Of a DNA stretch of 64,000 nucleotides, positions 13,370 to 42,621 are shown in pieces. Below the pieces are notes generated by a model that worked only from the letters and a program-made list of their open reading frames with translations, was not told the DNA's origin and made no database searches. The stretch lies in the NCBI GenBank assembly GCA_965250285.1, contig OZ252299.1:2592001-2656000 (forward strand), in the 5' to 3' direction. Both the position numbers and the translations under genes were made by a program. Position 1 is the first letter of the stretch; every line of letters begins with the position of its first letter. This DNA comes from Myxococcota bacterium. Lineage in GTDB: Bacteria > Myxococcota_A > UBA9160 > UBA4427.

Positions 13370-13461
13370 GTGCCTCAGAGGTGCCTCAAACGAAAAAGCA
13401 GCCACGCAAGTGGCTGCTTTCGTTAAGGAATTGGTGGAGGCGGCGGGAATCGAACCCGCGT
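13370..13461. repeat. Proximal copy of the 92-bp att-like repeat
   Basis: Matches 10438-10529 at 90/92 positions. Confidence 0.93.
13389..13424 (-). terminator. Intrinsic terminator after tmRNA (second copy at 10457-10492)
   Basis: GCAGCCAC-TTGC-GTGGCTGC stem followed by TTTTTCGTTT on the minus strand. Confidence 0.8.
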
Positions 13462-13799
13462 CCGAATGGCGTCCAATCGACGCGTCTACGTGCGTAGTCC
13501 TCGCCCAGATTCGGGTGGCGCAGTCGCGAGGTCCTGGAGAACGCTCACCCTATCTCGACGTCGATCTTACTTCCGGATACGGCCGAGAAGCGCTCGGAAG
13601 CCAGTCTCCTCATGACTCTGGCGACCCGCTAGGAGACGTCACGGACCAGAGCTCACTCACCTAATTTTTGTTAGGCAGCGAGAGCGTAGTTGTCGTCGGC
13701 ATTTGAAAAACACCAGACTTGCCGCCTGATTAACGAGAGCACGACCATCTCGGCACGCAGCGTCCACCTTCGACCACCCGTCGAAACCGGATCGCCCCC
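13432..13799 (-). ncRNA. ssrA: tmRNA
   Basis: 5' GGGGGCGATCCGGTTTCGAC; 3' T-arm GGGTTCGATTCCC...CCTCCACCA; tag ORF ADDNYALAA* at 13700-13671. Confidence 0.96.
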
Positions 13800-36582: not shown

Positions 36583-37944
36583 TCAGCGCACCTCGCTCCC
36601 CTCGCGGATCCGGTCCCGCCCACGCCAGACTTCGAGCGTCGCGAGCACGGCGTCGAACCAGGGCCACCACGCTTCGGCATACGCGAGCGGCGCCTCGCTG
36701 ACGATCACCATCACGCGGTCGTCGGGCAACTCGGTGAAGCGAAAGCGCTGGGCGTACTCGCCGCTCGCGTCTTCGACCTCGATCTCGAGCGCGGGCCGCC
36801 CGAACGCGACGATGCGACGCTGCGCGCGAAACCAGCTGCCCCCGAGCAGCTCGTCTCGGTACCGCTCGAGGAACGCTTCGAGCGACGCCGCCGGCCAGAC
36901 GAGCACGCGCAGCGACGCGTCGTAGTCCCAGCTCGGACCATTCGTCGTCAACAGGCCATGCGACTCCTCGATGCGCAGCCAACCCGCCGGGGGGCGCAGC
37001 TCGAAGCCCAGGCGTGCGTCGACGAACGGCGCGAGGGCGAGCACGGGTGCGCCGGGCGGCGGCGCAGGCGGAAGCGGCGCGGGGGGCGGCTCGACGGGCA
37101 CGTCCCCGTACTGCGTGCCGGCGGGCATCGAGTAGAGCGAAAGGAACGAGTGCACGTCTTGCGCCGACAAGCCGGCTCGGGGGGCTGCGCGATCGAGCCG
37201 CGGATACATCAGGTCCCCCGGGCTCGGGCTGTGGCCGCGCATGCCGAGCGCATGCCCGAGCTCGTGGAGCGCCAGCCGCCGCACGAGCTCGGGCGCAAGC
37301 AGGCCGTGCTCGTCGGCGAGATACAGGTCGAGGCTCGGTACATCGAAGCTGGTCACGATGCGATCGCGTTCGGGATCCCAGCCATGGGCGAGACACCCGC
37401 GCGCGAGCGCTTCGGTCGAACCGAGCACGCGCATGCCGGGCGCACGTTCGGGCGCGCGGCGGCCATGCATCGCGATGCGAAGCTGCGCCTCATCACCGCT
37501 CGCGACGCGCTCGAAGCGAACCACGCCCTCCAGCTGCTCCTCCCACTCTGCCATGGCCCCTTCGACGGCCGCGACGAGATCTGCGGGGTCGACCGGCGAG
37601 AACTCGTCCTGCACGTCGGGCGCGATGTCGGGGGGTTCGATGAAGACGCGCAGGGGCAGCTGGGCGTCGGGCCAGCGGCAGAAGACGAGCACGTCGCCCC
37701 GCGCGGCGTCGCCCTCGAAGCGGTGCACCATGAATGGCAGATAGTTCGGCTCGAGCAGCGAAGGCCACGCCTCCTTGAAGGCGAGGTACTCGCGGCGGTC
37801 GGGCTCGTACGCGAGATCCGAGGCTCGGCCTTCGCTCGCGTGCAGCGCCTTGCGTCCGTTCGACGCGCAGCCGGCGTGAAGCAGCAGGCCGGCGGCCAGG
37901 AGCCCGGCGGCCGACGCACCCCGCGCCCGCGCGAAGCCCCTCAA
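36583..37944 (-). CDS. Matrixin-family zinc metalloprotease lipoprotein
   Basis: HELGHALGMRGH plus Met-turn DLMYP; HAGC lipobox; probable TTG start overlapping the smpB stop. Confidence 0.8.
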   Translation of the reverse strand: MRGFARARGASAAGLLAAGLLLHAGCASNGRKALHASEGRASDLAYEPDRREYLAFKEAWPSLLEPNYLPFMVHRFEGDAARGDVLVFCRWPDAQLPLRVFIEPPDIAPDVQDEFSPVDPADLVAAVEGAMAEWEEQLEGVVRFERVASGDEAQLRIAMHGRRAPERAPGMRVLGSTEALARGCLAHGWDPERDRIVTSFDVPSLDLYLADEHGLLAPELVRRLALHELGHALGMRGHSPSPGDLMYPRLDRAAPRAGLSAQDVHSFLSLYSMPAGTQYGDVPVEPPPAPLPPAPPPGAPVLALAPFVDARLGFELRPPAGWLRIEESHGLLTTNGPSWDYDASLRVLVWPAASLEAFLERYRDELLGGSWFRAQRRIVAFGRPALEIEVEDASGEYAQRFRFTELPDDRVMVIVSEAPLAYAEAWWPWFDAVLATLEVWRGRDRIREGSEVR

Positions 37945-38438
37945 CGCCGTTCGCGGCCGCCACCGCGCCGCATGGCGCGCCGTGCTTCGAGATCGGCGTC
38001 GCGTCGCTTGATCGTCTCGCGCTTGTCGTGATGATGCTTGCCGCGCACCAGACCGAGCTCGACCTTCACCCGCCCGTCGCGCAGATAGAGCCGCAACGGA
38101 ACGAGCGTGAGCCCGCGCTCGACCACCCGAGAGCGCAGCTTCTGGATCTCGTGCCGATGGAGCAGCAGCTTGCGCTCGCGCATGGGTTCGGGCGCGCTGC
38201 GGTTCGCGTACTCGTAGGGCGTGATGTGCAGCTTCTCGAGCCAGCACTCACCGCCCTTGATGACGGCGAAGGCGTCGCCCATGTTGGCGCGCCCCTCCCG
38301 CAGACTCTTCACCTCGGGCCCGAGCAGCGCGATCCCCGCCTCGACGGCATCGAGCACTTCGTAGTCATGCCGAGCCCGCCGATTGGTCGCGATGACCTTC
38401 TCGTTCGGCTTCTCTTTCGCCTTCTTCTTCGCCGCCAT
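37941..38438 (-). CDS. smpB: SsrA-binding protein
   Basis: NRRARHDY, GPEVKSLR, RKLLLH and GKHHHDKRETIK motifs. Confidence 0.97.
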   Translation of the reverse strand: MAAKKKAKEKPNEKVIATNRRARHDYEVLDAVEAGIALLGPEVKSLREGRANMGDAFAVIKGGECWLEKLHITPYEYANRSAPEPMRERKLLLHRHEIQKLRSRVVERGLTLVPLRLYLRDGRVKVELGLVRGKHHHDKRETIKRRDADLEARRAMRRGGGRERR

Positions 38439-38601: not shown

Positions 38602-38952
38602 TCAGTCCCGTGCGCGATTCACCCCGTCGACGAAGACTCGCTTGGCCTTCCAGGTGCGGGCCTCGCTGTCGGGCACGGTCGTCCAGCTCGCGATGATCAC
38701 GCAGTCGCCGGGCTTGATCAGATGCGCGGCGGCGCCGTTCACGCAGATCTCACCCGAACCGGCCTCACCCTCGATCACGTAGGTGGTGAGGCGGTTGCCA
38801 TTGGTGCAGTCCCAGATGTCCACCTGCTCGTAGGGCAGCATGTCGGCCGCGTCGAGGAGGTCGCGGTCGATGGTGACCGAGCCCTCGTACTCGATGTTGG
38901 CTTCGGTCACGGTCGCGCGGTGGATCTTCGACTTCATCATGGTGCGGGTCAT
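38602..38952 (-). CDS. panD: Aspartate 1-decarboxylase
   Basis: [18 protein letters not shown] and NGAAAH motifs. Confidence 0.97.
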
Positions 38953-39017: not shown

Positions 39018-39920
39018 TCAGCTCTGAGACGCGTACTGATCCTTCAGCACACGATTGTCGATGAGGCGCACTTCGTTGCCCTGCCCATCCGCATCGCCGC
39101 GGAAGACCACGGCGAGGGCGAGCAGCACGTCGCCTTCGAGCGCGGGCTTGGCCGCCTCGAGGGTGTCGGGGTGGCGCAGCTCGGCATAGTCGACGGTGCC
39201 CTGCGAAGCCTCGCCGAGGACGGCGTGCACGCGGCCGAGAATGGCGTCATGCGACCGCTCGCCGGCGGCGTAGGCCGCCTGGGCCGCGTCGAGGGCCCGC
39301 ACGATCACGGTGGCCTCGCGCCGGGCCACCGGGCCCAGGTGCACGTTGCGACTCGACATCGCGAGCCCATCGGCCTCACGCAGCGTCGGCGCGCCAATGA
39401 TCTCGATGCCGAAGCCGAGGTCGCGCGTCATGCGCCGAATCACGGCCAGCTGCTGGTAGTCCTTCTGGCCGAACACGGCGACGTGGGGCCGGGCAGCCAG
39501 GAAGAGCTTGGTCACCACCGTCGTGACGCCCTTGAAGTGCCCCGGCCGGCTCGCCCCGCAGAGGGGATCGGCCAGCGCATCGACGTCGACCCACGTCTGC
39601 GCGCCTTCGGGATAGAGCTGATCCACCGTCGGGGCGAAGACGACGTCGACGCCGCGCTCGGCGCAGCGCGCGAGATCGGCATCGAAGGTCTGGGGGTACT
39701 GCTCGAAGTCGGACGGGTCGTTGAACTGCGTCGGGTTGACGAAGATCGAGACCCACACCTCGTCGGCGTGGCGCCTCGCTTCGTCGACCAGGGACATGTG
39801 CGCTTCGTGCAGCGCGCCCATGGTGGGCACGAGCGCGATGCGTCGTCCAGCGCAGCGCGCGGCGTCGGCGCGAGCCTGCAGCGCGTCGCTCTGTCGAATG
39901 ACAGTCGGCATCGTCGTCAT
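39018..39920 (-). CDS. panC: Pantoate-beta-alanine ligase
   Basis: [33 protein letters not shown] and RLIDN motifs. Confidence 0.97.
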
Positions 39921-40000
39921 GGCGGGGTTCCTCGAAGGGCTCCTGGGATCGACCGAGCGCACGGGTGCGCCGGCCGCCTCACTCGGCGCGACCACTGGCC

Positions 40001-40828
40001 TCACTCGTACGAGTGCGCCTCGTCGGGGAACTTGCGGTTCTGCACCTCGTCGGCGAACGAGCGTGCCGCCTGGCTGGCGGCGGCGCCGAGCGCGCCATAC
40101 TGCTTGACGAAGCTCGGGGTCCAGTCGTTGAGGCCGAGCAGGTCGTGCATCACGAGCACCTGGCCGTCGCAGTCGACGCCCGCGCCGATGCCGATCGTCG
40201 GGATCGCGAGCCGCTGGCTCACCTCGCGGCCGAGGGCGGCCGGAATGCCCTCGAGCACACAGGCGAAGGCGCCCGCCTCCTGCACGGCGAGCGCATCGTC
40301 GATGACCTGCATGCGGCCCTCGTCGCCTCGGCCCTGCACCCGGAAGCCACCCATCTTGTGCACGGACTGCGGCGTGAGACCGACGTGCCCCATGACCGGC
40401 ACCTGCGCTTCGACGATGCGCTTGATCGTCGGCGCCATCGTCACCCCACCCTCGAGCTTCACCGCGTGGGCGCCGCCCTCCTTCACGAGGCGGATCGCGC
40501 TGCGCACCGCGTCTTCGGGGCTCACGTGGTAGCTGCCGAAGGGCATGTCCCCGATCACCAGCGACCGCGACACGCCGCGCATCACCATGCGCGTGTGGTA
40601 GATGACCTCGTCGAGCGTCACCGGCAGCGTGGTCTCTTCGCCCTGCACGACGTTGCCGAGCGAGTCCCCCACGAGCAGCAGGTCGATGCCGGCCTGATCG
40701 AAGATGCGGGCGAAGGTGAAGTCGTAGGCGGTCAGCATCGTGATCGGCTGACCCTTGCGCTTGCGGTTCGCGAGCGACCGGACGGTCACTCGGTGTTCAC
40801 GTGCTGAGCTGGCGGTGACGGTGGACAT
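40001..40828 (-). CDS. panB: 3-methyl-2-oxobutanoate hydroxymethyltransferase
   Basis: LTAYD, LVGDSLG, KLEGG and GHVGLTPQ motifs; GGAG RBS before ATG 40828. Confidence 0.97.
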   Translation of the reverse strand: MSTVTASSAREHRVTVRSLANRKRKGQPITMLTAYDFTFARIFDQAGIDLLLVGDSLGNVVQGEETTLPVTLDEVIYHTRMVMRGVSRSLVIGDMPFGSYHVSPEDAVRSAIRLVKEGGAHAVKLEGGVTMAPTIKRIVEAQVPVMGHVGLTPQSVHKMGGFRVQGRGDEGRMQVIDDALAVQEAGAFACVLEGIPAALGREVSQRLAIPTIGIGAGVDCDGQVLVMHDLLGLNDWTPSFVKQYGALGAAASQAARSFADEVQNRKFPDEAHSYE

Positions 40829-40934
40829 GGGGGTGTCTCCGTTCCTGCGTGCAGCCGATGCGCGTCCTGCTCCCGATCCCTCTTTCGATCGCGACTCGGC
40901 CCGAGGCCGGGGTGTTCGTCGCAGAATCGAGCCG

Positions 40935-40973
40935 AAAAACGAAAAAGCGCCGTCCGGATTCATCCGGAGGCGC
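40935..40973 (-). terminator. Intrinsic terminator (attenuator) in the panB leader
   Basis: GCGCCTCCGGA-TGAA-TCCGGACGGCGC then TTTTTCGTTTTT, about 107 nt before the panB ATG. Confidence 0.8.
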
Positions 40974-40982
40974 TCGAAGGGG

Positions 40983-41197
40983 AGAGACCGTCGTGGCGCG
41001 GTGTCGGATCCCCCTTCGCTGACAGCTCGACCGAAGCTTCCTGCCTCGGCGACCTTCCCGACCGGACGGGCCCGGGGGCGCGTTCGGCTGCGGACATTGG
41101 ACGCCCGCGGCGGTTCGGTCCGATTCTGTCGAAGGGGGGCTCCGTGCGGTCGCCGAAGCCGGGTCTCCTCCTTGACCACCCCCGTCACGGTCTCTGC
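40983..41197 (-). ncRNA. Structured cis-regulatory RNA candidate (possibly pan-motif related)
   Basis: Nested helices 41187-41195/40983-40991, 41130-41144/41005-41018 and 41114-41123/41027-41035, plus a crossing 9-bp pairing. Confidence 0.6.
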
Positions 41198-41348
41198 GTG
41201 AGCCCTGCCCCCGACTCGTCGGGTCGCAGCGCTCGAGATCCATGCGTTGTCCGGGTGACTCTGGAGGACTCTCTCGTCTTCCGGGCGGGATGCGCCCGGC
41301 GGGTTGTCGATGGAGCCTGCACCCTGCAGTGCCCCTCAAGTGAGCGAG

Positions 41349-41376
41349 ATTGTAGAATCAACGTCCCGCCCGTCAA
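41349..41376 (-). promoter_or_regulatory. Sigma70 promoter for the pan leader
   Basis: TTGACG-16 nt-TACAAT. Confidence 0.65.
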
Positions 41377-41439
41377 CAGAAGTTCACATTTGGACTGGAC
41401 AGGTGACGTTGCCCCTCGGGGCTCCAGCCTCGGCGTGGC

Positions 41440-41721
41440 TCAGGAGGACGCCGCAGCATCGAGGACGCCGCGCACCGCGGGCGGCAGGAATCGCTCTTCC
41501 AGCGCGTCGCCGGCGTGGGCCACGAGCGCCGAGCCGAGGGACGCGATCTGGACATCGACGGGGTCGGCGGACGACAGCACGAGCCAGATCCGCCCCTTCA
41601 CGCGGCACACCCCGCTGGCGAGCGGCGGCTCGCCCTCGACTCCGGCCCGCACCGGGCGTACCTCGAGCCCCACCTCGTCGGCGAGATCGAGCAGCGCCTG
41701 CATCAGGTCGGCGGCCTGCAT
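41440..41721 (-). CDS. Hypothetical protein
   Basis: Strong GAGGGAGG RBS; SGVCRVKGR...FLPPAVR; fills the gap downstream of rsmA. Confidence 0.7.
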   Translation of the reverse strand: MQAADLMQALLDLADEVGLEVRPVRAGVEGEPPLASGVCRVKGRIWLVLSSADPVDVQIASLGSALVAHAGDALEERFLPPAVRGVLDAAASS

Positions 41722-41748
41722 GGCGATCTCCCTCCCTCGACCGCGAGG

Positions 41749-42621
41749 CTAGGCGACCCAACCGCGCGCCGCGAAGGCGTCGGCGAGCGCGACGAAGCGC
41801 GCCGGCTCGACCGTCTCGGCCCGCACGCCGGGGTCGATGTCGGCCGCGCGCAGGGCGTGCTCGATCTGCTCGCGCGCATCACCGAGCCCGGGATCGAGCG
41901 CGAAGCCCGAGCCACGCAGCGCGTTCGCGATCGTCTTGCGACGCTGCGAGAACGCCGCGCGGGTCACGCGCTCGACCCGCGCCAGCGCGTCGACCTCGAC
42001 GAGAGGCGTGGTCCGGGGCCAGACGCGCAGGAACGCCGACTCGACCTTCGGCGGCGGAAAGAACGCGCCGGGCGGCAGCACCGCGCAGACCTCGACGTCG
42101 ACGCAGAGCGCGTGCAGCACCGACAGCGAACCGTACGCCTTCGAGCCCGGCGAAGCGGCGATGCGATCGGCGACCTCGCGCTGGATCATCACCGACCAGT
42201 CGGCGAGCACCCCGCGCAGGTCGAGCATGCGCCGGAGGAGCGGCGTCGCGACCGAGTACGGCAGGTTGGCCACGAGCCGGACGGGGGCCGGCAGCTCGGC
42301 GGCAAGCGCAGCGAAGTCGACGTCGAGCGCGTCGGCGTGGCGCAGCTCGATGGGGCCGGGCAGCAGTTGCTCCGACTCGAGCGCGCGCACGACGCCGGCG
42401 TCGATCTCGATCGTCACGACGCGCGCCGCGCGGGCGGCGAGCGCGCGCGTCAGTACGCCGAGACCGGTGCCCACCTCGATGACGCCGTCGCCCTCGCCGA
42501 CGCCGGCGAGCTGCGCGAGGCGCTCGGCCTGACGGTCTTCGACGAGGAAGTTCTGGCCGAGCTCGCGGCTGAGCCGCAGCCCGTGCCGCTCGAGGACGCC
42601 GCGGACGTCGCGCAGGCCCAA
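41749..42621 (-). CDS. rsmA: 16S rRNA adenine dimethyltransferase
   Basis: LGQNFL, EVGTGLG, ANLPY, QREVA and QRRKT motifs; start uncertain (TTG 42621). Confidence 0.93.
   Translation of the reverse strand: MGLRDVRGVLERHGLRLSRELGQNFLVEDRQAERLAQLAGVGEGDGVIEVGTGLGVLTRALAARAARVVTIEIDAGVVRALESEQLLPGPIELRHADALDVDFAALAAELPAPVRLVANLPYSVATPLLRRMLDLRGVLADWSVMIQREVADRIAASPGSKAYGSLSVLHALCVDVEVCAVLPPGAFFPPPKVESAFLRVWPRTTPLVEVDALARVERVTRAAFSQRRKTIANALRGSGFALDPGLGDAREQIEHALRAADIDPGVRAETVEPARFVALADAFAARGWVA

Follow-up and report, generated by a model that had tools for sequence, protein, structure and literature searches.

The leader that precedes panBCD in the window (the whole 64,000-nt stretch of DNA that was analysed) is an expanded pan RNA and not a new RNA class or a new pseudoknotted switch. 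Comparison of related leaders and their predicted folds makes it rather probable, in our judgement, that this RNA attenuates transcription in a PyrR-like way: a multimeric protein, which a metabolite of the pantothenate/CoA pathway probably activates, would shut panBCD off.

The leader and its surroundings

The minus strand carries, in this sequence, tsaD, ksgA, an ORF of 93 aa, the promoter, the leader, and panB, panC and panD. The leader is about 514 nt long, with 68% GC. In the order in which they would be transcribed, the features are as follows.

41440-41721, minus strand: ORF of 93 aa with no match in Pfam, flanked by ksgA and the pan promoter
41349..41376, minus strand: sigma-70-type promoter TTGACG-16-TACAAT, predicted start at about 41343
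41309..41337, minus strand: pan hairpin 1 (2 bp, a bulged A on the 3' side, 5 bp, a bulged A on the 5' side, and an upper stem of 5 bp)
41281..41299, minus strand: GC-rich linker hairpin that recurs in this taxonomic order without a fixed sequence
41252..41258, minus strand: pyrimidine segment P0, a candidate anti-antiterminator that can pair with the antiterminator strand
41183..41246, minus strand: pan hairpin 2 (arms 41246-41235 and 41194-41183) with two bulged As
41177..41184, minus strand: antiterminator strand, which pairs over 8 bp with 40972-40965 in the 5' arm of the terminator
40975..41176, minus strand: variable structured spacer, which contains the nested helices proposed by the sequence-only reading
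40935..40974, minus strand: intrinsic-terminator-like hairpin of 12 bp (stem 40974-40946) with a U-run to 40935
40001..40828, minus strand: panB (PF02548, E 1.9e-115), with its ATG start codon at 40828
39018..39920, minus strand: panC (PF02569, E 1.1e-95)
38602..38952, minus strand: panD (PF02261, E 2.6e-49)

The sequence-only reading had described a promoter about 510 nt before panB, a U-tailed terminator ahead of the gene and no credible ORF between the two, and this frame stands. The promoter (41376-41349) is the sole promoter-like site in 40000-42500 (shuffle mean 0.1), and TTGAC is found 37-43 nt 5' of hairpin 1 in 82 of the 87 leaders with a canonical hairpin 1. The terminator ends about 105 nt upstream of panB and is identical in sequence in G001, the only other genome of the same genus; a simple terminator scan lists no entry at 40974-40946 because the stem has a bulge. 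A mechanical listing does return some ORFs that overlap the leader, but G001 differs from the window by indels of 1, 2 and 35 nt, and leader lengths are very unequal among relatives; we therefore reject a leader peptide and regard the leader as non-coding. The folding energy of the whole leader lies at z of about -2.0 relative to shuffled sequences.

The lack of a second promoter-like site in 40000-42500 also argues against an explanation in which the terminator marks the 3' end of a separate small RNA, 6S for instance, and panB is transcribed from a promoter of its own. The promoter-to-terminator unit of about 410 nt would suit such an RNA, and RF00013 finds no 6S elsewhere in this genome. 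However, Rfam scans of the window and the leader returned only a tmRNA at cut-off and nothing at cut-off within the leader, panB follows in all 30 of the pattern loci that were retrieved, and the leader has the pan architecture, which together leave this explanation very little probability. The RF00013 model, which has no match in the window or anywhere in the 95% complete genome, missed most control genomes too, and the 6S RNA of this organism may be divergent. Weaker matches in the leader to ctRNA_pGA1, MH_s15, M23 and hammerhead models were rejected as they rest on the terminator or on GC hairpins, and resemblances to T-box, SAM, c-di-AMP, TPP and raiA RNAs were dropped for want of an Rfam match.

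The tmRNA lies at 13432-13799 on the minus strand, and smpB (37941-38438, minus strand) directly follows panD in the same window. Many relatives likewise have the 93-aa ORF between ksgA and the promoter of the leader; look-alikes of this ORF in the Atlas belong to nameless clusters, mainly from Myxococcota where the phylum is known.

Two bulged hairpins of the pan type

In the definition of Weinberg et al. 2010 (PMC2864571), the hallmark of pan is a stem that carries two bulged As; such stems mostly come in tandem and lie ahead of panB, panC or panD. The authors raise, as a hypothesis only, the binding of a dimeric protein. The window has two tandem bulged-A stems, and they are placed before panB, panC and panD.

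Searching with the leader DNA gave matches in 10 of 61 genomes, mostly through the first 150 nt and the terminator. Leaders of relatives were collected by two routes: searching with the PanB protein matched 64 of the 68 genomes of the family, and a hairpin-pattern search retrieved one copy each from 54 of 151 genomes of the class (reversed control, 0). The scored set comprises the 101 leaders that remained once two duplicates, a locus lacking panB, a paralogue of panB and ten leaders of other classes had been removed. Hairpin 1 is canonical in 87 of the 99 leaders with hairpin 2, the other 12 having been excluded after visual inspection as miscalled or uncalled. The alignment holds 47 short-linker relatives (of 51 eligible) and excludes the window for its long hairpin-2 loop; as 19 of the 47 were picked by the hairpin-2 pattern, variation in hairpin 2 is partly hidden.

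Hairpin 1 starts right after the predicted transcription start, and its core pairs form with P 0.77-1.0 in the window. Among the 47 relatives 98.8% of its cells are paired and seven of 11 pairs change on both sides, compared with four of nine pairs in hairpin 2; in the window, hairpin 2 carries a compensatory change from U-A to A-U. Over the alignment two-sided changes affect 13 of 24 pairs, a count that none of 500 shuffles reached, and 96.8% of the aligned pairs are paired (39-54% in slid controls). The finder for hairpin 2 fires on 70 of 72 leaders selected through panB, versus 22 of 360 shuffled and four of 72 reverse-complement controls, although it requires both As and likeness to the consensus, which fixes those columns by construction. 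The covariation that had been proposed as a check is thus present in hairpins 1 and 2, whereas the pseudoknot and alternative pairings put forward by the sequence-only reading are not conserved.

The conserved parts are joined by segments of free length: the hairpin-2 loop ranges from 4 to 173 nt and the linker from 39 to 211 nt across relatives, and the loop in the window has a 40-nt hairpin insert that is absent in G001. Linker folding is, overall, not above that of shuffled sequences (median z -0.45, n=87), and we do not claim the linker hairpin as an aptamer element. An intact hairpin 2, antiterminator and terminator accompany a degenerate or replaced hairpin 1 in six leaders, mostly from genus g7 (L028, L032, L035, L038, L086 and L104). 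In L112 and L115, which belong to a different order of the class, hairpin 2 is the only one of the two hairpins that can be made out, a short way behind the promoter.

The Rfam model of pan, RF01749, has no match in the window up to E 10. Its gathering cut-off of 36.2 bits is passed in none of 61 genomes; the three sub-threshold matches all fall on hairpin 2 of this leader type, two of them before panB and one at a locus without panB. Relatives score 21-33 bits. In L053, which has a 39-nt linker, positions 1-92 of the model align with both stems in register at 32.9 bits, the sole match among the 14 short-linker relatives given. The hairpin-2 arms of relatives are identical, letter for letter, to published pan seed rows. 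Because the RF01749 cut-off is not reached, we describe the leader in the window as a variant of the pan motif.

A covariance model built from the 47 sequences (R1) gives the window 86 bits. It detects 97 of the 101 genomes of the order, training genomes included, nearly always with one copy. Beyond the order it reaches three of 102 genomes, weakly, with two of these matches just before panB, and it does not find the genomes of L112 and L115. In the window's own genome R1 gives one strong copy and two weak ones (E 0.15 and 0.5), and a loose hairpin-pattern search gives seven matches. Weak second matches occur on other contigs in two genomes (G142:C298:431-568 at 28.7 bits; G280:C471:578-671 at 27.8 bits).

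The same hairpins could form a true riboswitch, predicted to bind pantothenate, pantoate, CoA or acyl-CoA directly through docked bulged stems. The fixed sequence around both bulges is consistent with this explanation, as are the upper stem of hairpin 1, whose conservation in this order exceeds that seen in published rows, the additional elements in the linker, the occurrence of both transcriptional and translational outputs, and the overall layout, which is that of a classic aptamer followed by an expression platform. However, conserved unpaired bases are few besides the bulges, and even the 5' bulge of hairpin 1 is a C in 16 of 87 leaders; forms with a single hairpin exist (L112, L115 and published rows); the RNA occurs once per genome, and all copies inspected lie before panB and none before a transporter; and the literature searched holds no report of a ligand. 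We consider a riboswitch of this kind unlikely. A more specific version, in which the conserved top of hairpin 1 and the anti-antiterminator helix make the expanded pan RNA a predicted protein-free riboswitch for CoA or pantothenate, is a shade less probable again; in the literature searched, no riboswitch for the pantothenate/CoA pathway is described.

Predicted antiterminator, spacer and terminator

The antiterminator strand shares bases with the two outermost pairs of hairpin 2, so that the expression platform overlaps the conserved domain. In 65 of 67 leaders (the 70 with a called terminator minus three that were miscalled) the antiterminator 9-mer ranks within the best 2% of 9-mers of the same leader for pairing with the 5' arm of the terminator. 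The helix is 96.3% paired in its register and 41-68% paired when slid. Its covariation is weak: two of eight pairs change on both sides, a value reached in 44 of 500 shuffles (30 of 36 eligible sequences). The same layout with other letters is seen by eye in the published row of NC_000964, where AGAGGGAU complements AUCCUUCU, and in published pan rows from Bacillus and other taxa, where a strand after hairpin 2 complements a downstream U-tailed hairpin.

When transcripts are folded up to a point just after the 5' arm of the terminator, the antiterminator forms with P 1.0 in the window and P >0.5 in 35 of 54 leaders, with P only 0.32 in G001; the outer pairs of hairpin 2 drop from 39 of 54 leaders to 16 of 54 and its inner part persists. 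Once the terminator is complete, it is favoured at equilibrium (P >0.9) in 37 of 54 leaders, the window included, and the constrained ON and OFF folds of the window are about 1 kcal/mol apart with the whole U-run. Since the full-length equilibrium favours the terminator, read-through would depend on the order of folding.

The terminator was called in 70 of the 99 leaders with hairpin 2 and not in the other 29, and its stem is more conserved than covarying across relatives. Hairpins 1 and 2 are intact, with the terminator decayed or uncalled, in 11 leaders, nearly all from genus g14 (L006, L009, L021, L026, L041, L077, L083, L087, L093, L094 and L103). In L051 (1531-1560, plus strand) and L109, the antiterminator strand probably serves as the ribosome site, as it lies just a few bases upstream of the start codon, and in L053 a terminator hairpin without a U-run buries the ribosome site. 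A shut base of hairpin 2 is predicted to mean OFF in these translational forms too.

The antiterminator strand has a further candidate partner in P0. This segment is 85% paired in the alignment of 47 relatives, and its 58 scored contacts comprise 27 A-U, 23 G-C, eight G-U and no A-C pairs, with 41 of 99 leaders unscored and the counts confounded with kinship; in the window it forms in some folds and has P 0.01 in another. Hairpin 2 itself is met by a 9-bp complement between 41195-41187 and 40991-40983, which in G000, the genome of the window, and in G001 opens hairpin 2 and leaves the terminator free. The fold with this helix has an equal ensemble energy (-205.8 versus -205.6 kcal/mol), and in these models it is a second OFF fold specific to this genus. 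This complement, which lies just before the terminator, coincides with the compensatory change that is specific to this genus in hairpin 2, and may retune the switch here.

These observations bear on an explanation in which the hairpins bind a factor, but in this genus the terminator acts as a fixed dampener, or control falls mainly on translation or stability, and the antiterminator match simply results from G-rich facing C-rich sequence. The weak covariation of the antiterminator, the preference for the terminator at equilibrium, the many relatives that retain both hairpins without a called terminator, and the second OFF fold of this genus would all be expected under this explanation. They have to be weighed against the exact register of the match, the rank of its 9-mer above other 9-mers of the leader, and the recurrence of the complement, by eye, in rows published for other phyla, where the letters differ. 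On balance a fixed dampener appears improbable, to about the same degree as the protein-free riboswitch in its more specific version.

The sequence-only reading had already called the leader an expanded pan-like attenuator, which was correct, but the evidence it cited came from the wrong part of the leader. It proposed a pseudoknotted sensor between 41195 and 40983 that switches through 41062-41069 or 41011-41018. The complements behind its nested helices exist. That between 41187-41195 and 40983-40991 spans 9 bp, is unchanged in G001 and has P of about 0.3 in the window ensemble, but among the 70 leaders with a called terminator it occurs only in the two of this genus; 41130-41144/41005-41018 forms a helix of -23.1 kcal/mol; and 41174-41180/41000-41005 has a core of 4 bp only. 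The crossing pair 41148-41156/41046-41054 is indeed a perfect 9 bp, yet it is broken in G001 by two uncompensated substitutions and an insertion; its P of 0.0 in the nested ensemble is no test, as the program cannot model pseudoknots. Both alternative 8-bp complements are likewise perfect, but neither is conserved. Strand 41062-41069 is not retained in G001 and pairs with the 3' arm of the terminator at P 0.0 in the nested ensemble, and 41011-41018 pairs with 41130-41137 at P of about 0.97, versus 0.01-0.02 with 40975-40982. The conserved antiterminator is instead 41184-41177, which pairs with the 5' arm.

Shuffled controls, which had been suggested as a check on these helices, give a divided answer. 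Three perfect 9-bp complements occur in the leader, where shuffles average 1.1, and at least one is present in 68% and at least three in 10% of 500 shuffles, so that a lone 9-bp complement is at chance level. The stretch 41200-40975 alone, however, holds three against 0.28 expected, a number reached in one of 500 shuffles. The spacer folds better than shuffles in most leaders (median z -2.0, n=53; 42 of 53 below -1) and, in the folds of the window and G001, forms a long irregular hairpin that is closed by the antiterminator helix and joins the two ends of the spacer. In relatives the spacer measures about 30-255 nt and has no common sequence. As its length and sequence vary, the pseudoknot is broken in G001 and the first helix is confined to this genus, the nested helices are best read, from these comparisons, as a real but lineage-specific structured spacer, without the conservation expected of a sensor. 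The complements do exist, and the stretch is more self-complementary than shuffles; nevertheless, a sensor in a region that relatives fill with unrelated sequence, with an antiterminator that costs about 14 kcal/mol of ensemble energy when forced, is highly improbable.

Proposed regulation and comparison with known systems

The attenuator that we favour would work through the base of hairpin 2. Without the factor, 41184-41177 would pair with the 5' arm of the terminator as soon as that arm is transcribed; this pairing would open two outer pairs only, beside the 3' bulged A of hairpin 2, and the polymerase would read through into panBCD. When the pathway product is abundant, a multimeric protein would bind both bulged stems and keep the hairpin-2 base shut, the terminator would form, and panBCD would be off.

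We favour a protein as the factor because loop and linker lengths are free, as would suit modular sites, conserved unpaired bases are few, single-hairpin forms exist and each genome has one copy, in front of the biosynthetic operon; a dimeric protein was also the proposal of Weinberg et al. The most likely candidate is a Pan enzyme encoded by the operon itself, and sufficiency of pantothenate or CoA is presumably the OFF signal, as biosynthetic operons follow feedback logic. The 93-aa neighbour is disfavoured as a trans-acting factor: it has no family and, in a search run without a positive control, this query did not find it in any of five RNA-carrying genomes; elsewhere in the analysis, tblastn did detect homologues from the same order, at 46-56%.

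This order adds about 100 members to the pan motif that Rfam misses. Its natural variants include deletions (down to the 107-nt minimal form of L053), large insertions, and terminator or ribosome-site outputs, and together they point to the two bulged stems and the hairpin-2 base as the working parts. They are ready test constructs for the pan motif; these organisms offer no genetic handle, and Bacillus subtilis would be an easier test bed. The literature searched, mostly open-access and with the 2010 supplements only in part, yielded neither a ligand nor an antiterminator for pan; in the parts consulted, PMC4342826 and PMC5670726 merely list pan before panBCD and PMC6593275 does not treat it.

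The leader shares with RF01749 the tandem stems with two bulged As and the same 2+5+2 spacing of pairs, the position at the 5' end of a panB/C/D leader, hairpin-2 arms that in relatives equal the seed rows, and a U-tailed hairpin that follows, as in the seed flanks. It differs in its linker, which is GC-rich, structured and 62 nt long in the window (order median 75), whereas the model has about 30-40 AU-rich nt; in the insert of 40 nt in the hairpin-2 loop; in the 200-nt spacer before the terminator; in the candidate extra anti-antiterminator helix; and in its scores, with no match for the window and relatives below the cut-off. In the pyr operon of Bacillus subtilis, as described in the part of PMC4347634 consulted, the protein PyrR stabilises an anti-antiterminator, so that the terminator forms and the operon is off. 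The logic proposed here, in which a protein-held anti-antiterminator would shut a biosynthetic operon, is the same, whereas the RNA motif and the pathway are different; the likeness to PyrR lies only in how the switch would work.
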